Of a DNA stretch of 32,000 bases, positions 8,128 to 32,000 are shown piece after piece (within the stretch, counting starts at the first letter, position 1; every line of letters starts with the position of its first letter). A program made the translations under genes and the position numbers. The notes under the pieces were generated by a model, which worked only from the letters and a program-made list of their open reading frames with translations, ran no database searches and was not told where the DNA came from. The DNA is taken from assembly GCA_028700905.1 (NCBI GenBank), contig JAQVRT010000001.1:1-32000 (forward strand), given 5' to 3'. This stretch comes from Candidatus Iainarchaeum sp. Lineage in GTDB: Archaea > Iainarchaeota > Iainarchaeia > Iainarchaeales > CSSED10-239.

Positions 8128-10080
8128 ATGATAGATACAAAAACAGAATCAAATGCATTTAATACATTCTTTACAAAACATAAAAAAATTATATTTATAT
8201 TACTTATTTTTTTAATGGCTTTTGCTGTTAGAGGTCATCTTTTAAAATATGACAATATGTTTGAATTTGATACTTATTGGCACTTAAGAATGACAGGTTA
8301 TGTTTTACAAGGAGATTTGCCTGATAATGATCCATTAGGTTTTTATGCACAGGGTGGATCTTCACTTGAAAATAGGCCTTCCTTTGTATGGTATTTAACT
8401 TCTTTTTTGTATATTTTATTTACTCTCGGAGCTCCCTACAATAAAGCATTACTCATGGAATTTGCAAGGTTTTTGCCAGCCATCTTTGGGGCTTTAATCT
8501 CAGTTGCAATGTATTTTTTAGGTAAAGAAATTTATAATCGTAAAGCAGGATTTATAATGGCAATAATTACTGCTACAATTCCTGCATTTGTTTATAGAAC
8601 CATGGCTGGATTTTATGAAGAAGATGCTTTAGGATTTTTATGGATGATTTTAGGTTTTATTTTCCTTGTTAAAGCAATAAAAAATATGCATTCAAGAAAG
8701 CAAAATATAAGATACTCTTTATTATCTGGTTTGTTTTTTGGACTTATGGCTTTTACTTGGTCTGCATTTATTTTAGTACCTTTAATTGTTGTTTCATTTT
8801 TAATTGCAAATTTAATATATATGGCTTATAAGAATTATTCTAATAAAGATATTGCTTTATTTTTAAGAACTATTGTGATTTCTTTTGTAATCTTTGCAGC
8901 TTTAGCATCAATTGCTCAACCAGGTTGGGTAAAGACTACAGGTAATTATGTAATTGATAATATTCCTTTAAGTAAAGAAAATATTGATAAACTTTCAAAT
9001 AATGTTACTTCTGATACAGATGTTGTAAAAGCGTCTGTTGGGGAAGAAAATACAGGAAAACAATTTTTCTTATACAAGTATAGTTTTCTTTTATGGATTC
9101 CTTTTGTTGTGCTTTTAATAATGCCACTTAATTTATTATTTTCAAAAAAGAAAGATAATTTAACATTATTACTTTTCTTTTGGATTTTTATAACTTTATT
9201 AATGGCTTGGTCAAAATTAAAGTTTACATTCTATTTTGGAATACCGATTGCTGTATCTGCAGGATTTTTAATTTATTTTATAAATGAATGGATTAATAAA
9301 AATTCAACAGTCTTAAGAAAAAGAGTTTTTGCAATATTTGTTGGTTTGATTTTATTAACTTCTATTGCTGCTGGAACTCATGAAGTTTATTCTAAAGTGC
9401 CACATATTGTTGAAAAAAATGACTGGAGAGAGTCAATTTTTTGGATTGGAGAAAATACTTCACCAGATGCAAAAATATTTAATTGGTGGGATTATGGTCA
9501 CTGGATAACTTATTTTTCTGAAAGAAAGGCAAGTACTGATAATACCAATTCAAATATAGAAGGTACAAGTGAATTTGGATTATTTATTTTAAGTCAAGAT
9601 TTAAATTATACTGCAAACCTTATGAAAAAATATGATGCTGATTACTTTATTGCAGATAATGGTTATTTTAATAGATATGCTTCATTTGGATCTTACGGTT
9701 TTATAACTACAAATTATCAAGATCCAAGAATTACAAGTTATATTTCATTTACTTTAGATTGTTATCCTGGATCTTTAGGTGATGGTAAACTTGCATATAA
9801 ATGTGGAGAAAATATCTTTTCTGAAGAAGAAATTAATTCAGTTCCAACAGTTTGGACTGATAAACCAAAAGATGTAATGAATGGAGTTCCAATCTTTATG
9901 TATCGTTTAGAAGATAACTCTAAATTATTTATTTTAAATACTTCTTCAAATAATTCTGCATTTGCAAAAATATGGTTTAATGAAAATATTCATTCTCAAT
10001 TATTTTCTTTAGCTTATGAAAATGGAGATGTAAGAATATATGAAGTTAATAAAGAAAAAGTGAACGAATATGCAGAATAG
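8128..10080 (+). CDS. aglB: Archaeal oligosaccharyltransferase AglB (STT3 family)
   Basis: Polytopic N-terminal domain followed by a WWDYGHW (WWDYG) catalytic motif and a soluble C-terminal domain. AAGGGGA lies upstream of the ATG. Confidence 0.9.
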   Translation: MIDTKTESNAFNTFFTKHKKIIFILLIFLMAFAVRGHLLKYDNMFEFDTYWHLRMTGYVLQGDLPDNDPLGFYAQGGSSLENRPSFVWYLTSFLYILFTLGAPYNKALLMEFARFLPAIFGALISVAMYFLGKEIYNRKAGFIMAIITATIPAFVYRTMAGFYEEDALGFLWMILGFIFLVKAIKNMHSRKQNIRYSLLSGLFFGLMAFTWSAFILVPLIVVSFLIANLIYMAYKNYSNKDIALFLRTIVISFVIFAALASIAQPGWVKTTGNYVIDNIPLSKENIDKLSNNVTSDTDVVKASVGEENTGKQFFLYKYSFLLWIPFVVLLIMPLNLLFSKKKDNLTLLLFFWIFITLLMAWSKLKFTFYFGIPIAVSAGFLIYFINEWINKNSTVLRKRVFAIFVGLILLTSIAAGTHEVYSKVPHIVEKNDWRESIFWIGENTSPDAKIFNWWDYGHWITYFSERKASTDNTNSNIEGTSEFGLFILSQDLNYTANLMKKYDADYFIADNGYFNRYASFGSYGFITTNYQDPRITSYISFTLDCYPGSLGDGKLAYKCGENIFSEEEINSVPTVWTDKPKDVMNGVPIFMYRLEDNSKLFILNTSSNNSAFAKIWFNENIHSQLFSLAYENGDVRIYEVNKEKVNEYAE

Positions 10081-11098
10081 TGTTTTATTCTTTATATTTT
10101 TAGGTTTTTCTTTTTTCTTTTCTTTATTTTTATCTTTGTTTTTAGTTCCAATGTTTATTAAAATTATTTCTAAAACATCTTATCTTGGAAAAGATATGAA
10201 TAAATATAATAAGGATTTAGTTTGTGAGCTTGGAGGAGTTCCAGTTTTTTTAAGTTTTATTTTTTCAATTTTTTTAATAATGTTGTTAAATTTTATTTTA
10301 ATTTCAATTTTTAGTTTTAATTTTTCAGTAATTGATTTTATTCAGTTTAGTTTAATTATTATTGCTTTATTTTCAATATTTTTTGTAGGATTTATTGATG
10401 ATATTTTAGGTTGGAAAAAAGGAATTAGTCAAATACAACATTTCATTTATCCTTTAGTTTTTTCAATTCCTTTAATTATATATGCTTTAATTTATGAAAT
10501 TACAACTCTTTATATTCCTTTATTAGGTGTTTTGAATGTAGGTCTTGTTTATGCATTTATTTTGGTTCCAATTGCATTTACTGCAACTACAAATCTTTTA
10601 AATTTACTTGCTGGATTTAATGGTCTTGAAGCTGGTATGGGAATTATAATTTTTTTAACAATTTCAATTTTTTCTATTTTTCAAGGAAATATTACTCTTG
10701 TAATTATTTTATTTGCATGGATAGGTGCACTTTTAGGTTTTTTAAAATTTAATAAATTTCCATCTAAAATGTTTCCAGGAGATATTATTACTTTAATTAA
10801 TGGTTCATTAGTAGGTATTTCAGCGATTGTTTTAGGTTTAGAATTATTAATTGCTTTTTTAATTATTCTTTTTATAATTGAATTTATTATTAAAGCAAAA
10901 CATAAATTTAAAACAGAATGTTTTGGATTAATTTCAAAATCTGGAATTATAAAACCAAATCCTAAAGGTGGATCTTTAACTCATTTTGTTTTAAGTAAAG
11001 GAAGGTTTACTGAAAAAAAATTAGTTAATGTTTTTTATATTTTACAAGGAGTAATTTCTGCAATATCATTAATTCTTTTCTTTATTGTGTATATTTGA
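10070..11098 (+). CDS. aglH: Dolichyl-phosphate GlcNAc-1-phosphate transferase (GPT/MraY/WecA family, AglH-like)
   Basis: FVGFIDDILGW and NLLNLLAGFNGLEAG motifs in a multi-TM protein. It overlaps the aglB 3' end by 11 nt. Confidence 0.8.
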   Translation: MQNSVLFFIFLGFSFFFSLFLSLFLVPMFIKIISKTSYLGKDMNKYNKDLVCELGGVPVFLSFIFSIFLIMLLNFILISIFSFNFSVIDFIQFSLIIIALFSIFFVGFIDDILGWKKGISQIQHFIYPLVFSIPLIIYALIYEITTLYIPLLGVLNVGLVYAFILVPIAFTATTNLLNLLAGFNGLEAGMGIIIFLTISIFSIFQGNITLVIILFAWIGALLGFLKFNKFPSKMFPGDIITLINGSLVGISAIVLGLELLIAFLIILFIIEFIIKAKHKFKTECFGLISKSGIIKPNPKGGSLTHFVLSKGRFTEKKLVNVFYILQGVISAISLILFFIVYI

Positions 11099-11104
11099 TG
11101 TATT

Positions 11105-11938
11105 ATGAGGTTAATTTCTTTTAGTAAATTTTTAATTATATCAAGGCCTATTCTTTTCCCACTTATTTTTATTTGTTTATTGGTTGCTTTTTTTTATACT
11201 TTTAGGTCTTTTAGTTTTCTACATTTTATTGATTTAATTTTTATTTTATTGTTAACTTTTCTAGTTCCATTTTTTACCTTTTCTATTAATGATCTAGTAG
11301 ATTTTTATTCTGATAAAAAAAATATTAGGAAAAAAAATATTCTTTTTGGAAAATTTCAAAAAGATTTATTATCTTTTAAAAGTTCAATTTATTTATATAA
11401 TTTTTTAATATTTTTAGTTCTATTTGTTTTTTCTTTAATTTTTTATAATTTAGACACTGTGATTATTTTATTACTACTTTTATTTTTTCTTTATTTTTAT
11501 TCTGCAAAACCAATTCGATTTAAAGAAGTTTTTATTTTAGATTTTTTATCAAATGGAATAATTACTTTACTTTGTTTTGCTTTAATTTATTCTTTTAAAT
11601 ATTCTATTTTTAATTTGCCATTAGGAATTTATTTAATTTCTTTGGCAATTTCTTCTTATCATTTAATTGCAGCTCAATTAGATTATTATCCAGATAAACT
11701 TGCAAATCAAAAGACAACTGTTGTATTCATAAATAATAAGCATATAATTTATTCATTAACTTTATTATTAAATTTACCTTTATTTTTAATTTCTTTTAAT
11801 TCTATTTTTAGATATTTAGTTTATTTAAATATAATTATTATTTTAACTTTGTGGTTTTTTCCAAAGGTAAATAAAAAAATAATTTTTTGTTTGTTTATTA
11901 TTTTTTGGACATTTATTTGTATTTTTTATTTAATTTAA
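11105..11938 (+). CDS. UbiA-family prenyltransferase-fold membrane protein, substrate unknown
   Basis: NDLVDFYSD (NDxxDxxxD) and DYYPD (DxxxD) Asp-rich motifs in a polytopic protein. It starts 6 nt after the aglH stop. Confidence 0.7.
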   Translation: MRLISFSKFLIISRPILFPLIFICLLVAFFYTFRSFSFLHFIDLIFILLLTFLVPFFTFSINDLVDFYSDKKNIRKKNILFGKFQKDLLSFKSSIYLYNFLIFLVLFVFSLIFYNLDTVIILLLLLFFLYFYSAKPIRFKEVFILDFLSNGIITLLCFALIYSFKYSIFNLPLGIYLISLAISSYHLIAAQLDYYPDKLANQKTTVVFINNKHIIYSLTLLLNLPLFLISFNSIFRYLVYLNIIIILTLWFFPKVNKKIIFCLFIIFWTFICIFYLI

Positions 11939-27240: not shown

Positions 27241-27783
27241 ATGTTAACTTTTTTTAAAAAAATTAAAAGAGATTTAAAGACTAAAAAAAAATTAAAAGAA
27301 TCTCTTTATTTTTTATTATTTTTTATAATTTCTTTTTCTCTTATTTATCTTTTATTATCAAAGACATTAATTTATAATTTCATAAATTATTTTTATGGTT
27401 CTCTTTCAAGCACTCTTTTAAATATTTTTTATAATATTCCTTCTACTTTTTATTATGATTTTATAGAACAGGTAACTTTTCTAATAATTCCAAGTATAGA
27501 GTATCCTGTTGCAATTGTTTTCTTGTGCACAGGTATTTTAGAGTTTTCTTTAATTATAAGTGCTATTGTTTCAACAATTGGTTTTTCTTTAAGAAAGAAA
27601 ATAAAATGGGTGTTATTTTCTTCTTTCCTTGTAATTATTTTTAATCTTTTAAGAATAACTTTTACAATATTTATAATTGATTATTTTAATTTAGAAATAG
27701 CTAACTTTTTCCATGGTTTTTTATTTAGATTATTTTTAGTATTTATTGTTATTGGTACTTATTATTTTTTCTTAAAATCTTAA
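27241..27783 (+). CDS. Archaeosortase/exosortase-family transpeptidase (short form)
   Basis: Polytopic 180-aa protein with the ordered Cys/Arg/His signature of the family: VAIVFLCTGILEF, IIFNLLRITF and NFFHGFLFRLF. Confidence 0.6.
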   Translation: MLTFFKKIKRDLKTKKKLKESLYFLLFFIISFSLIYLLLSKTLIYNFINYFYGSLSSTLLNIFYNIPSTFYYDFIEQVTFLIIPSIEYPVAIVFLCTGILEFSLIISAIVSTIGFSLRKKIKWVLFSSFLVIIFNLLRITFTIFIIDYFNLEIANFFHGFLFRLFLVFIVIGTYYFFLKS

Positions 27784-27787
27784 ATTT

Positions 27788-28099
27788 TTATTTTTTAGGA
27801 CCTTTCTTAATCTTTGGTTTTTTCTTTTTACAATTTTCATTAATAATATTAATCTCTTTTGTTAATTTATCATTCTTTTTTTGAAGACTTGAGATTTCAC
27901 AAAGAATAATTTCTGCAAATTCTTTATTTCCTTTATTTGATCTTATCATGTCTTTACAGTATTCTATATTAATGTTATTAAGTTCAATTTTTTCAGAATT
28001 AGAAATTGTACCTACTCTGTTTTTTTCTTGTAATTTATTTTTTCTTTTTGCAATTGGAGATGATGAATGGTTCCATTTTTTATTTATTTCAGTTGTCAT
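27788..28099 (-). CDS. Hypothetical basic protein
   Basis: 103-aa Lys/Asn-rich ORF with three Cys. Its ATG overlaps the upstream gene's stop (ATGA), indicating translational coupling with 28096..28488. Confidence 0.45.
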   Translation of the reverse strand: MTTEINKKWNHSSSPIAKRKNKLQEKNRVGTISNSEKIELNNINIEYCKDMIRSNKGNKEFAEIILCEISSLQKKNDKLTKEINIINENCKKKKPKIKKGPKK

Positions 28100-28488
28100 T
28101 TCTGCATCTCTTCTTTAATAAGTTTTTTCACTTGTTCAATAGTTGTATATTCTAAAGGATTAATATTATCAATTACATATTTCATTTCTTTTAAATCTTC
28201 AGCTCTTGCATATCTTTTTGAAAACATTTCAAGACTTGATTCAATCCCTTTCATTCTGTTTTCAATATCTTTCATTTTTTTAAAAATTTCTTCAATTTTT
28301 TCATTAGATGCAAAAGATCCTTGTGAATCAGAAGTATTGGCTGAAGCAATCTTTTTATTTAAAACAAGGATGTTTCTTCCAAGTATTTTTTCATTATGCA
28401 CAAGATATTTTATTTTTTGTCTTAAAACAAGAAGACTTGATTGTAAGGCTTTAATATCTTGATACACATTTTGTGATTGATCAACCAT
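28096..28488 (-). CDS. Hypothetical coiled-coil protein
   Basis: 130 aa with heptad-like helices on either side of a Ser/Gly-rich linker (ASANTSDSQGSFAS). No family recognised. Confidence 0.5.
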   Translation of the reverse strand: MVDQSQNVYQDIKALQSSLLVLRQKIKYLVHNEKILGRNILVLNKKIASANTSDSQGSFASNEKIEEIFKKMKDIENRMKGIESSLEMFSKRYARAEDLKEMKYVIDNINPLEYTTIEQVKKLIKEEMQK

Positions 28489-28636: not shown

Positions 28637-28683
28637 CTATTTGTCTCATAAATATATAAAAATAAATGAGGTGTTATAAAGAT

Positions 28684-29040
28684 ATGAATAAAAAAATATT
28701 AAATATTTTCGGAGTACTTTCTGTTTTAGTTTTTTTAGTATTTGTTTCTTTAAACTTAAGTGCAGAGAGATTTGATGTTACTGATATTTCTTACTCTTAT
28801 GTAAGTTATAATTATCCATATTACCCTAATGCTCAATACTATAATAATTACTACAATTATTATGACACTTATACTCCTACAGGTTATGTAAATTCATATA
28901 CTGGTTATATTAATTATCCAGTTTATTCAACTTATGTTCCAACTTATTATAACACTTCATATGTTACATATCCTTCATACTATTATAATACAATCAGTTA
29001 TGGAAGTCCAGAAGCATATGTTTCTTTTAGTTGGCAATAG
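28684..29040 (+). CDS. Secreted, extremely Tyr-rich low-complexity protein
   Basis: Signal peptide MNKKILNIFGVLSVLVFLVFVSLNLSA. The mature region of about 90 aa has 28 Tyr by manual count and a Y/N/T/S/P composition. The SD spacing favours ATG 28684 over the track start at 28666. Confidence 0.6.
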   Translation: MNKKILNIFGVLSVLVFLVFVSLNLSAERFDVTDISYSYVSYNYPYYPNAQYYNNYYNYYDTYTPTGYVNSYTGYINYPVYSTYVPTYYNTSYVTYPSYYYNTISYGSPEAYVSFSWQ

Positions 29041-29068
29041 ATAAAAAAGAGGATTTAAAGGTTTTATT

Positions 29069-32000
29069 ATGAACTATAAATATTTTTTTGTATTTTTATT
29101 AGTAGTTTTATTTTCATCAATGGTATTTTCATACACAATTGGTTTTGATTATGCAGAAGTTAGAACTACAAGTTATCCTAACTATCTTAATTATCAATAC
29201 GCTCATTATTATGATAATATTGATTTAAGATATGGAGTTTATGGGAATGGAATTTCTTCTCCAGTAACAGTTATAGTTTCTCCAAAAGTATATGGAATAA
29301 CAACAACTGGTCAAAGAGTTTTTGTTCACAATATCCAAACTCACTCTTTTATAATGAACCCTTCTTCTTTTTATACTTATAGTTATAATCCAATGTTTTC
29401 TTTTGATCCTGCATATCAAAGTTATGAAGTTGTTTTAGATCTTCAAAGTTCAGATGGTTCTTTTAATAACTCTGTAAGTAGATATGTTTATTCTCAAGGA
29501 ACTAATCCAAACCCTACAGGAGATGATCCTACAGGAGATGATCCTAATGTTGTTAGTTGTGATGATTTTTATGTTTCAGGAATGGAAAATATTTATTTAG
29601 ATGAAGATTCAAGAGAATATTATAATCTTTATTTAGTAAATTCAGTTGACTTACCACTTACAATTACTTCAGTTACAGTTTCTCCAGAGAATCCTAGTAA
29701 CTTAGAAATTGAAGATATTACTTATCCTTTTACAGTTTCTGCTCTTCAAACAAGAAGTGCACAAATTGAACTTTTTACAGATACTGTTTCTTCTGATTAT
29801 TCAAATAGTTTTCAAATAGAAGTTAAAGGTAAATATGATAATTCTTTAACTTGTGAAAAAACATATAATGTAAATTATAGAATACTAGATGCTGAACTTG
29901 AAAATAATGGTTCTTGTAGTGATATAAGAATTTTAGATGATTATTTTACAATGAGTGATAATTCTTCTAAAACTTTTGAAATTGAAGTTTCAAATGCTTC
30001 TCAAGATTATTATTTTGAAGTTGATGATATTGATTTAGATACTACAAATGATTCAATAATTGAAGCTAATGTTAGAAACACAATTGATAAAATTTATACT
30101 GATTCTTCTAAGTTTTTAAAAATAAATGTATCTTCAGATGACACTTCTTTTTACAGAACTGAAAAAATAGATTTAGAATTAACAGGTTATTTAAAAAGAG
30201 AAAACAGAGAAGATAAAAAATGTAGAATTAGAGAAGAAGTTTCAATTAGAGTTTCTCCTGATTCATCAACTGGTAATACTTCAAACGAATGTGATGATAT
30301 AAAAATATATACCAGAGATGTCTTCCAAGATTCTCAAGTTACAAAAAATTACTCTCTTCAAGATGGTTTTTATATTTATAATGGAACTAATAAAAAATTC
30401 ACTGTGTCTGGTATTAATTATAAAGACAATACTATGTATGCAGATATTTTTTCAAAATCTTTTGATTATACTCTTTATCCTAGATCTTCTAATGCTTTAA
30501 ATTTTGATATAAGAACAAGTGAAGTTTCAGAAAATAAACTTTCAAATGCAGAAATTTCTATTCAAGGATATTTTGAAGGTGGACTTTCTTGTAGTTATTC
30601 AGATGTAACTTCAAATTTTAATTTAACTATAAGAGAAGAAAACGATCTTTGTTCAAATGTAGGTATTTATGATGGTAGCTTTGTTGAGGGTGAAAATTAT
30701 TTTACAGTTTATAATAATACTAATAAAGACTTTACTGTAAATGATATTATTTCTCAAAATTCAGTTAACTCAAATGTAGGTGTAATTGATTCTTCTTTTA
30801 AAGTTTTAAAAAATTCACAAAAAACTTTTAGAGTAGGTTCTTCAGGAAATGGTAGTTTTGAGCTTTTAGCTAAAGGTATTTTTTCAGATGGTACTTCTTG
30901 TGACTATACTCAAACAAGTAGTGGTTATTTTAATAGCGACTCTGGTTATGATTTTTCAGATACTTCTTGTGAATTTGAATTTAATTATCCAAATGTAAAA
31001 TATATTTCTTTAAATGGAGATTCTCTAAATTTTGATTTTAGAAACTTAACTGGTAAATCTGGTGAGATTAGACTTTCAGCAGTTGGAGCAGTTATTGAAG
31101 ATCCAATTATTAAGTTTTCTTCATATGCATCTTTTAATAAAGAAATAGATCTTTTAAATATTAAAAATCCAAAAATGGTTCTTTATACAATTGAAATTTA
31201 TGGTTGTTCTAAAAAATCATATTTTACAAATCTTTATCCTTTAGAAAATCCTATTCAAGGAGAAGTTTCATTTTTAACATATCCTAGTAATTTAGTTTCA
31301 ACAAAAGATAAGTTTATAAGTTCTTTTTCACTTAAAAACTCAAGTGGAGTTTCAGAAGATGTTGAAATTAAATTTTCAGGATTTACAAATGCATTTAATT
31401 TTGTATCTTCTCCTTATCCATTAAACCCAAATACTTTTTCATCTTCAGATAATATTTCAACAGTTACAATAAATCCAAACTCTACAAAGAATATTTATTT
31501 TGGAGTTAGTGTTTTAGAAGATGCTGAATATAAAAAATATAATGGATATATAGAAGTATATAGTAACAATAAATTATTATTTAAAGAACCTTTATCAATA
31601 GATAGATCAATTACTACAGATAATTTATTAGTAAATACTGTGGTTGAAAAAACATCTGTTAAAAATACTGTTCTTTTAACTTTTACTTTTGAAAATAAAT
31701 TACCTGACCTTACAAGAGAACTTTATTTATCTTTTGAAGATGAGAATAATTTTCAAGTAGATGGTAATAGAAATATATCTGTTGAACCATTAAGTGTTCT
31801 TGAAAGGAGCTTTACTATTGAATATAATGAGGGTTCTTTGTTTAAGTATAATTTAATTGATCAAGATAATTCTTCTCTTGCATATTCAGGAGAAGTGGAT
31901 TTAAAAGAAGTTGATGATTCTTCAAATCTTTTGTCTGGATTTTTTACTCTTTCAGATACAAAAGGATTTATATTTGGAATTGTTCTTATATTACTTATAG
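29069..32000 (+). CDS. Large surface protein (at least 977 aa, 3' end beyond the window), absent from the ORF track
   Basis: I checked every codon from ATG 29069 to 31999 and found no in-frame stop. It has a signal peptide MNYKYFFVFLLVVLFSSMVFS and a Tyr-rich N-terminal region. Ten Cys form five regularly spaced pairs. There are about 19 N-x-S/T sequons. The hydrophobic tail GFIFGIVLILLI lies at the window edge. Confidence 0.85.
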   Translation, partial: MNYKYFFVFLLVVLFSSMVFSYTIGFDYAEVRTTSYPNYLNYQYAHYYDNIDLRYGVYGNGISSPVTVIVSPKVYGITTTGQRVFVHNIQTHSFIMNPSSFYTYSYNPMFSFDPAYQSYEVVLDLQSSDGSFNNSVSRYVYSQGTNPNPTGDDPTGDDPNVVSCDDFYVSGMENIYLDEDSREYYNLYLVNSVDLPLTITSVTVSPENPSNLEIEDITYPFTVSALQTRSAQIELFTDTVSSDYSNSFQIEVKGKYDNSLTCEKTYNVNYRILDAELENNGSCSDIRILDDYFTMSDNSSKTFEIEVSNASQDYYFEVDDIDLDTTNDSIIEANVRNTIDKIYTDSSKFLKINVSSDDTSFYRTEKIDLELTGYLKRENREDKKCRIREEVSIRVSPDSSTGNTSNECDDIKIYTRDVFQDSQVTKNYSLQDGFYIYNGTNKKFTVSGINYKDNTMYADIFSKSFDYTLYPRSSNALNFDIRTSEVSENKLSNAEISIQGYFEGGLSCSYSDVTSNFNLTIREENDLCSNVGIYDGSFVEGENYFTVYNNTNKDFTVNDIISQNSVNSNVGVIDSSFKVLKNSQKTFRVGSSGNGSFELLAKGIFSDGTSCDYTQTSSGYFNSDSGYDFSDTSCEFEFNYPNVKYISLNGDSLNFDFRNLTGKSGEIRLSAVGAVIEDPIIKFSSYASFNKEIDLLNIKNPKMVLYTIEIYGCSKKSYFTNLYPLENPIQGEVSFLTYPSNLVSTKDKFISSFSLKNSSGVSEDVEIKFSGFTNAFNFVSSPYPLNPNTFSSSDNISTVTINPNSTKNIYFGVSVLEDAEYKKYNGYIEVYSNNKLLFKEPLSIDRSITTDNLLVNTVVEKTSVKNTVLLTFTFENKLPDLTRELYLSFEDENNFQVDGNRNISVEPLSVLERSFTIEYNEGSLFKYNLIDQDNSSLAYSGEVDLKEVDDSSNLLSGFFTLSDTKGFIFGIVLILLI
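29513..29542 (+). repeat. Perfect 15-nt tandem duplication (cctacaggagatgat x2) encoding PTGDD-PTGDD
   Basis: Read directly from the sequence. It lies in the linker between the Tyr-rich N-terminal region and the first Cys-bracketed module. Confidence 0.8.

Follow-up and report, generated by a model that had tools for sequence, protein, structure and literature searches.

The first 32,000 nucleotides of contig JAQVRT010000001.1 (assembly GCA_028700905.1, Candidatus Iainarchaeum sp.), hereafter the window, end inside a long open reading frame (ORF), and this locus raises the question of what kind of protein the frame encodes and how that protein is held on the cell. An earlier reading of this DNA, made from the letters alone (the sequence-only reading), proposed a surface protein of a reduced archaeon. 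Our analysis agrees with this proposal in that the product is predicted to be an exported, membrane-anchored, beta-rich and multi-modular protein of a DPANN archaeon. With a probability of roughly 0.5, this surface protein is the conserved main envelope glycoprotein, an S-layer (surface layer)-type coat, of Candidatus Forterrea and its Iainarchaeota relatives, and its C-terminus marks it as a probable archaeosortase substrate. DPANN envelopes mediate the contact on which these reduced cells depend, and to our knowledge they are almost uncharacterised.

29069 to 32000, plus strand: ORF of the surface protein, residues 1-977 of about 1,047, cut at the window edge

Translation of frame 2 gives 977 codons without a stop from the ATG to the window edge, and the nearest upstream in-frame stop is at 29042. 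At the GC content of the window (23.4%) the chance of such a run is about 5e-41, so the sequence-only reading was right that the frame is open to the window end and is not accidental. It also described the ORF as untracked. The ORF is indeed missing from the ORF listing, but this is an artefact, because such listings leave out frames running off the window. The window protein is 96% identical to a 1,047-residue protein that is present on 38 contigs and is also encoded by Candidatus Forterrea multitransposorum, in its closed genome (CP045477.1, 839,632 bp). About 70 C-terminal residues, comprising the rest of a transmembrane (TM) helix and a charged tail, lie beyond the window edge. Public records (e.g. 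NCP79591.1) label the protein "hypothetical protein". Ca. Forterrea multitransposorum is a member of the Diapherotrites/Iainarchaeota (DPANN) from Crystal Geyser groundwater, and a symbiotic lifestyle has been predicted for it (PMC5905446). Between the window strain and the strain of locus L001, the ratio of nonsynonymous to synonymous substitution rates (dN/dS) of the gene is 0.12. The gene is real and conserved. That the frame is no real gene, a chimera, or an ordinary protein of well-known CARDB, PKD or Big domains is barely conceivable, and the artefact part of this explanation is refuted by the improbability of the open frame, by the low dN/dS and by the presence of the same protein on 38 contigs and in a closed genome. 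The last of these rules out the chimeric assembly that the sequence-only reading had kept in view.

A word-indexed search found ten clusters of relatives with 22-96% identity, each of 959-1,050 residues, and a second profile search returned the same ten proteins and none further. An exhaustive search of 1.84 billion representative proteins found 61 clusters at E <= 1e-3, about 15 of which are full-length orthologs of 969-1,051 residues. Among the family clusters that were looked up, there was no name other than "hypothetical protein". The cluster at locus L009 contains a member annotated as Micrarchaeota. The surface protein is thus a new, unnamed family of a familiar kind, and not a categorically new one.

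The AlphaFold2 model, built from an eleven-sequence alignment, is an all-beta chain of eight sandwich domains with a mean predicted local distance difference test score (pLDDT) of 73 and per-domain values of 70-87. The parts of the protein up to its last folded domain are listed here, and full-length orthologs of about 1,012-1,050 residues share this layout.

29069 to 29131, plus strand: signal peptide, residues 1-21, MNYKYFFVFLLVVLFSSMVFS, assigned by inspection and kept in orthologs
29132 to 29503, plus strand: N-terminal beta-sandwich, residues 22-145, unrelated to the other domains
29549 to 29890, plus strand: module 1, immunoglobulin (Ig)-like, residues 161-274, Cys164/Cys262
29906 to 30259, plus strand: module 2, residues 280-397, Cys283/Cys385, conserved sequon N309-A-S
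30281 to 30637, plus strand: module 3, residues 405-523, Cys408/Cys508, conserved sequon N438
30641 to 30934, plus strand: module 4, residues 525-622, Cys528/Cys611, conserved sequon N549
30959 to 31243, plus strand: domain 5, Cys-bracketed beta-sandwich, residues 631-725, Cys634/Cys713, conserved sequon N659
31259 to 31606, plus strand: domain 6, Cys-free, residues 731-846, homologous to domain 7
31619 to 31906, plus strand: domain 7, Cys-free, residues 851-946, NEW3/FixG_C-like (CARDB-type Ig)

The signal peptide predicted by the sequence-only reading is recognisable, by inspection only, from a K-containing n-region, a hydrophobic core and a putative cut between VFS and Y, and a signal-peptide-like segment is conserved at the N-terminus of the orthologs. 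It was modelled as a helix with low pLDDT at residues 14-21. The N-terminal domain has no profile-profile kinship to the other domains of the protein and is the best-conserved part of the family (VSPKVYG, YNPMFYFD). The two Cys-free beta-rich domains that had been placed after the Cys modules appear in the model as domains 6 and 7.

The surface protein has ten Cys residues, at 164/262, 283/385, 408/508, 528/611 and 634/713, and no others in the 977 residues, exactly the five pairs that had been read from the sequence. None of the ten varies in the eleven-sequence alignment, even at 23% identity, and the spacing across 68 relatives is C-96(+/-4)-C, then about 19-33 residues (about 24 in roughly 60 relatives), repeated and ending in C-79/80-C. 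The bracket is therefore a real, family-wide feature. Among 23 full-length or nearly full-length family sequences, Cys residues are lost solely as bracket pairs while the neighbouring Cys are retained: Cys164 and Cys262 are jointly lost in P0019, P0020, P0022 and P0023, and Cys283 and Cys385 in P0013. This concerted loss favours pairing within a module (164-262 and so on) over pairing across the 20-residue linkers, and thus supports predicted intramodule disulfides. In the models the first Cys immediately precedes strand A, and the second stands where the last strand begins. In an Ig-type sandwich these positions would be at the same end of the domain, so the distance between the paired Cys, as inferred from these positions, would be consistent with a disulfide.

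The sequence-only reading described five repeated modules. Five Cys brackets are present, but comparison with hhalign using sub-alignment profiles showed that, among the five, mutual homology is confined to modules 1-4 (probability 93-98%, E 1e-7 to 1e-13). Domain 5 gave profile-profile probabilities below 4% against modules 1-4 and is unrelated to them, and the protein therefore has four repeats and one different Cys-bracketed domain. Homology was also found between domains 6 and 7 (profile-profile probability 95.8%).

Searches of Pfam and NCBIfam with the window protein gave nothing significant, and for the Cys-bracketed modules no cutoff of either library was reached in the ten relatives or in 50 modules scanned singly. 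Recurrent sub-threshold matches of the modules were to DUF1573, DUF5001, the TMEM131L Ig-like domain, HYDIN/CFA65/VesB-like Ig domains and the NCBIfam choice-of-anchor D family, most of which we take to be PapD-like/ASH Ig families. The best matches to PapD-like/ASH families were that to NF012200, with 28.4 bits against a cutoff of 45, and those with E values of 0.001-0.008 in one to three of the 50 modules. Module 3 modelled alone had a pLDDT of 92.7 and a predicted template modelling score of 0.81. Foldseek with this model found VesC and VesB Ig domains, MSP, the CEP192 ASH domain and pilus chaperones (E 3e-5 to 1e-3, template modelling scores 0.5-0.67). With the whole model, the matches were to the HYDIN-type ASH arrays found in proteins of the ciliary central apparatus (E 1e-28) and to alpha-2-macroglobulin MG arrays. 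On the strength of the Foldseek results and the weak sequence matches, modules 1-4 are predicted to be remote PapD/ASH/HYDIN-VesB-like Ig sandwiches, which is a known fold and not a new one. The sequence-only reading could not assign the modules to a named domain; this holds at curated thresholds, but not for the fold. The sequence family of the modules and its Cys bracket appear to be undescribed in the libraries searched.

Domains 6 and 7 resemble NEW3/FixG_C domains. In the relative P0010, FixG_C scored 43.2 bits (cutoff 25.6) at the position aligned to domain 7, and a weak profile match in the Protein Data Bank (PDB) to the FixG-related protein 2r39 covers residues 848-930. The window protein itself had no NEW3/FixG_C match at E <= 10, and profile searches against PDB sequences gave marginal matches only. 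The above-threshold FixG_C/NEW3 match in P0010 and the sub-threshold matches to DUF1573, DUF5001, TMEM131L Ig and HYDIN/VesB Ig are what can be said for an ordinary protein of well-known domains. Against this explanation, no Pfam or NCBIfam cutoff was reached by the window protein or by single modules, and the Cys bracket is specific to the family.

8128 to 10080, plus strand: AglB/STT3 oligosaccharyltransferase (STT3 83.5 bits, AglB core domain)

The aglB gene noticed by the sequence-only reading is present in the window and points to a capacity for N-glycosylation, and AglB, a GT4 glycosyltransferase and a UbiA-type gene are grouped at 8128-11938. The window part of the surface protein contains 18 N-x-S/T sequons, close to the number of about 19 given earlier, but they are not enriched over composition (18.2 +/- 3.6 expected from 2,000 shuffles, p = 0.57). 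The total count was rejected as a sign of glycosylation, because a count that matches the compositional expectation is by itself no evidence. The positions of individual sequons are another matter. N309, N438, N549 and N659, one each in modules 2-4 and domain 5, are kept in 15-16 of 16 orthologs, and the module's only invariant Asn has x-S/T after it, and so forms a sequon, in 37 of 50 modules. These four residues are plausible conserved glycosylation sites.

The most informative context of the gene was overlooked by the sequence-only reading, namely a C-terminus resembling a sorting signal and an adjacent archaeosortase-family gene.

31934 to 31951, plus strand: juxtamembrane signature S956-G-F-F-T-L, residues 956-961 (family consensus [ST][GA][FL][FLVA]x[LF])
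31967 to 32000, plus strand: start of the C-terminal TM helix, F967 onward, cut by the window edge
27241 to 27783, plus strand: 180-residue exosortase/archaeosortase-family membrane protein, candidate sorting enzyme, 1.3 kb upstream of the surface-protein gene

The hydrophobic tail that was seen to be cut by the window edge corresponds to a TM helix in full-length relatives, where the juxtamembrane motif is followed by the hydrophobic helix and then by a K/R cluster. In nearly all TM-bearing members, [ST][GA][FL][FLVA]x[LF] lies 8-12 residues ahead of the hydrophobic core. In 36 of 56 TM-bearing members, the protein ends 2-12 residues past the TM helix and this end is K/R-rich, for example ...PLSGFLTLGNAGLIILGLIILVVLVIIFRRR. 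Substrates of sortases, exosortases and archaeosortases have this tripartite architecture of a motif, a TM helix and basic residues (PMC6098224).

The 180-residue protein matched TIGR04178 with 42.9 bits (cutoff 23), and its residues C96, R138, H158 and R163 do not vary among 12 homologs with identities down to 43%. Pfam Exosortase_EpsH scored below threshold (19.6, cutoff 25.7). The enzyme matched only the generic TIGR04178, and no specific Art subfamily or ArtA-type equivalog in the model library. ArtA has about 300 residues, and the 180-residue enzyme is much shorter. The archaeosortase gene was found upstream of the surface-protein gene and on the same strand in all Forterrea-lineage loci that were fetched via the surface protein and had enough flanking sequence. 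The same order was found, with a spacing of 0.6-5 kb, in essentially all 35 metagenome loci that were fetched via the archaeosortase gene alone and had enough downstream sequence. In about 0.5 Mb of flanking sequence, the only ORFs combining the motif, a TM helix and a basic C-terminus were members of the surface-protein family. In the closest strain (L013, 10543-18916), an insertion of about 8 kb separates the archaeosortase gene from the surface-protein locus. It carries a 2,138-residue secreted NHL-repeat giant and two small Cys-rich secreted ORFs, and a duplicate of the archaeosortase gene's 3' half (86-residue fragment) forms its boundary.

The surface-protein gene directly precedes the rpl3-rpl4-rpl23-rpl2-rps19 operon in every locus (L001, L002, L009, L010 and L011), even at 22-26% identity. 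This position is unusually deeply conserved for a surface protein. On its other side, a second gene for a secreted product accompanies it.

28684 to 29040, plus strand: gene for a small, Tyr-rich secreted protein (about 24% Tyr), 28 nt ahead of the surface-protein gene

Translation of this ORF probably does not begin at the listed ATG at 28666. In most loci, including the Micrarchaeota-like L009 (1035-1613), the surface-protein gene is preceded, at a distance of 25-100 nt, by a gene for a small secreted protein of 22-34% tyrosine. This protein consists of a signal peptide, FDVTDISYSYV, a Tyr-rich low-complexity stretch and then ...VSFSWQ, and it had no family match. The two genes are probably co-transcribed, and the Tyr-rich protein may be a partner or cement protein of the surface protein.

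The dN/dS of 0.12 for the surface protein compares with 0.04-0.36 for twelve neighbouring genes in the same pair of strains, and constraint is weakest in domains 6 and 7, next to the membrane (dN/dS 0.22). The selection pattern is that of a housekeeping structural protein and not that of a diversifying adhesin or antigen. The codon adaptation index relative to ribosomal genes was non-discriminating, since the surface protein ranked 9th of 38 and the ribosomal genes themselves were scattered. The genome of P0009 has a diversity-generating retroelement next to the locus (L002 1-2600, and L003). In L002 it comprises an Avd-like gene (823-1158), a reverse transcriptase (1548-2600), a template repeat (1224-1345) and a variable repeat (147-268, 84% identity). 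Diversification of the surface protein by this element was considered and rejected, because the variable repeat belongs to another ORF, which lies upstream and is cut by the locus edge.

The sequence-only reading offered an S-layer or a host-attachment protein. A host-attachment adhesin of an episymbiotic DPANN cell, in which an Ig-like stalk presents an N-terminal binding domain, would fit the symbiotic lifestyle predicted for Ca. Forterrea (PMC5905446), the fact that Ig-like arrays with a distinct distal N-terminal domain are typical of adhesins, and the strong conservation of the N-terminal domain. It is nevertheless improbable. The protein is under strong purifying selection at a rate similar to that of its ribosomal neighbours, and it occupies one fixed locus by the ribosomal operon from Iainarchaeota to Micrarchaeota-like relatives, whose hosts are presumably different. 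In the Forterrea paper (PMC5905446), five other proteins, longer than 1,800 residues and encoded in a 42-kb region, are the ones assigned to cell-cell interaction. The low dN/dS together with the fixed, single-copy position therefore favours a housekeeping role in the envelope, of the S-layer type, over host attachment, so that the first half of the earlier proposal is retained and the second half is disfavoured.

Several observations weigh against an archaeosortase-processed, S-layer-type protein. Members of the Forterrea clade have a charged tail of 54-69 residues beyond the TM helix and basic cluster. In P0001-P0008 and P0017 this tail, which for the window protein is beyond the window edge, ends in [KR]Q[IV]T[LF]x[DEQ][LV][DE] (e.g. 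KQITLxELD), and it is missing from most family members outside the clade. A long tail with a conserved end suggests a retained bitopic protein that may have a cytoplasmic function. No model of a sorting signal (CTERM), such as PGF-CTERM TIGR04126, matched at E <= 1 in ten full-length members. The archaeosortase gene was not found in the limited flanks of the distant loci L009 and L010 (22-26% identity), and its adjacency to the surface-protein gene could be synteny inherited within one lineage. The habitat is anoxic. No S-layer family model (S_layer_N/TIGR01564, DUF1608/TIGR01567) matched the window protein or the ten relatives in Pfam and NCBIfam. A preprint names A0A2G9N319 (1,039 residues) as the Iainarchaeota S-layer protein; this entry may belong to the same family or may be a competing candidate. 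The preprint also describes an MSTP-like fold class, to which it assigns the phyla other than Thermoproteota, Thermoplasmata, Halobacteriota and some Methanobacteriota, and the model of the surface protein does not obviously have such a fold.

The conserved Forterrea tail, the lack of an archaeosortase gene in the L009 and L010 flanks and the lack of a match to curated sorting-signal models would all be expected of a surface protein with a simple type-I membrane anchor that no archaeosortase ever processes. Its SGFF motif would then be merely structural, and the archaeosortase would serve other substrates elsewhere. Moreover, the whole S8e-Art...surface protein-rpl3 block is syntenic, and therefore the adjacency of the two genes is not independent evidence for their relation. 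We regard this alternative as possible but doubtful. Most members show the classic sortase-type architecture, with a K/R cluster and an end 2-12 residues past the TM helix, and the motif of small residue, Gly and aromatic residue is kept at a fixed distance from the TM helix at 22-26% identity. In addition, the two genes stay linked across inserts of 0.6-5 kb and, in L013, of about 8 kb, and the flanks contain no other candidate substrate. As for a signal that is followed by a tail, a passage in PMC6098224, citing PMC5350275, states that ArtA is able to process a non-terminal tripartite signal.

Our reading of the protein as an envelope glycoprotein would imply the following course. The surface protein would be exported by the Sec pathway, lose its signal peptide and fold into a string of eight beta-sandwich domains. 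Modules 1-4, of the Ig-like PapD/ASH type, would each be stapled by a disulfide, and domain 5 would have an analogous staple. Modules 2-4 and domain 5 would each offer one conserved N-x-S/T site to AglB. The protein would be held on the cell by the tripartite signal of [ST]G[FL] motif, TM helix and basic cluster. The archaeosortase-family enzyme whose gene is 1.3 kb upstream would most likely recognise this signal, and in most family members it would most likely cleave the signal and attach a lipid anchor. As a main coat protein it would also be expected to be abundant and to form a lattice. A more far-reaching idea is that the Iainarchaeota, and perhaps other DPANN archaea, have a minimal 180-residue archaeosortase dedicated to the surface protein alone through an undescribed [ST]G[FL]-type signal, that their coat consists of a new Cys-stapled Ig module and a co-transcribed Tyr-rich partner, and that this gene pair is locked to the head of the rpl3 operon as the principal envelope locus. 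We put this forward as tentative.

With its domain map, the surface protein gives the Iainarchaeota a concrete and conserved candidate for their main envelope protein. The combination of an unclassified mini-archaeosortase and a new variant of the sorting motif offers a testable anchoring mechanism. The Cys-bracketed module is diagnostic and recurs in about 60 clusters of DPANN surface proteins, and the features of the module and of the signal would aid the annotation of "hypothetical" giants in DPANN genomes.

Two other places in the window deserve mention. An ORF at 44-901 on the plus strand encodes a 285-residue protein with a signal peptide, several sequons and a few Cys, for which neither a family match nor a C-terminal anchor was found. 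Two ORFs overlap in antisense, 28067-28462 on the plus strand and 28096-28488 on the minus strand. The minus-strand ORF encodes a 130-residue coiled-coil-like protein that is conserved, with 98.5% identity and a dN/dS of 0.04 relative to L001, and the plus-strand ORF is probably a shadow ORF.

Among known systems, the S-layer glycoprotein (csg) of Haloferax volcanii and its archaeosortase ArtA are the nearest parallel. Both proteins have a Sec signal peptide and a chain of Ig-like beta-sandwiches, and both share N-glycosylation by AglB, which is predicted here. They also share a C-terminus with a motif of small residues, Gly and Phe, a TM helix and basic residues, and an archaeosortase-family enzyme encoded in the genome (PMC6098224). 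They are of a similar size class (supplement of bioRxiv 10.1101/2024.05.28.596244). Unlike csg, the surface protein has Cys-bracketed modules and no sequence homology to csg, its processing and lattice are putative, and the Forterrea clade adds a tail of 54-69 residues past the TM helix. Its motif, [ST]G[FL], differs from that of PGF-CTERM, and TIGR04126 is not matched. The 180-residue enzyme differs from ArtA in matching the generic TIGR04178 and no ArtA-type subfamily model.

With the PapD-like/ASH/MSP Ig domains (PF22544, PF07610, NF012200), modules 1-4 share the predicted fold and a conserved Asn in an "x-I-x-N-x-S" strand. They differ in that all sequence matches are below curated cutoffs, with template modelling scores of only 0.5-0.67, and in that the N- and C-terminal Cys bracket with its fixed 96-residue spacing is specific to the surface-protein family. 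The conserved Asn forms a sequon in most modules. Domains 6 and 7 are similar to the CARDB-type Ig domains NEW3/NPCBM_assoc (PF10633) and FixG_C (PF11614).

The surface protein is also similar to proposed S-layer proteins of DPANN archaea, namely Micr_00292 of Ca. Micrarchaeum harzensis, NEQ300 of N. equitans, MJ1_0160 of Nanobdella and A0A2G9N319 of Iainarchaeota, which are secreted multi-domain beta-sandwich proteins of about 1,000 residues with many sequons (bioRxiv 10.1101/2021.04.28.441871, 10.1101/2023.10.27.564410, 10.1101/2024.05.28.596244). The S-layer domains of Micr_00292, of the TIGR01564/TIGR01567 type, are not matched in the surface protein, and MJ1_0160, unlike the surface protein, has no C-terminal TM helix. 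Because the corresponding models fail to match, the surface protein is placed outside PGF-CTERM/ArtA and the known archaeal S-layer families. Current concepts are not overturned by this protein; instead, the halobacterial S-layer/archaeosortase paradigm would be extended to a DPANN lineage.

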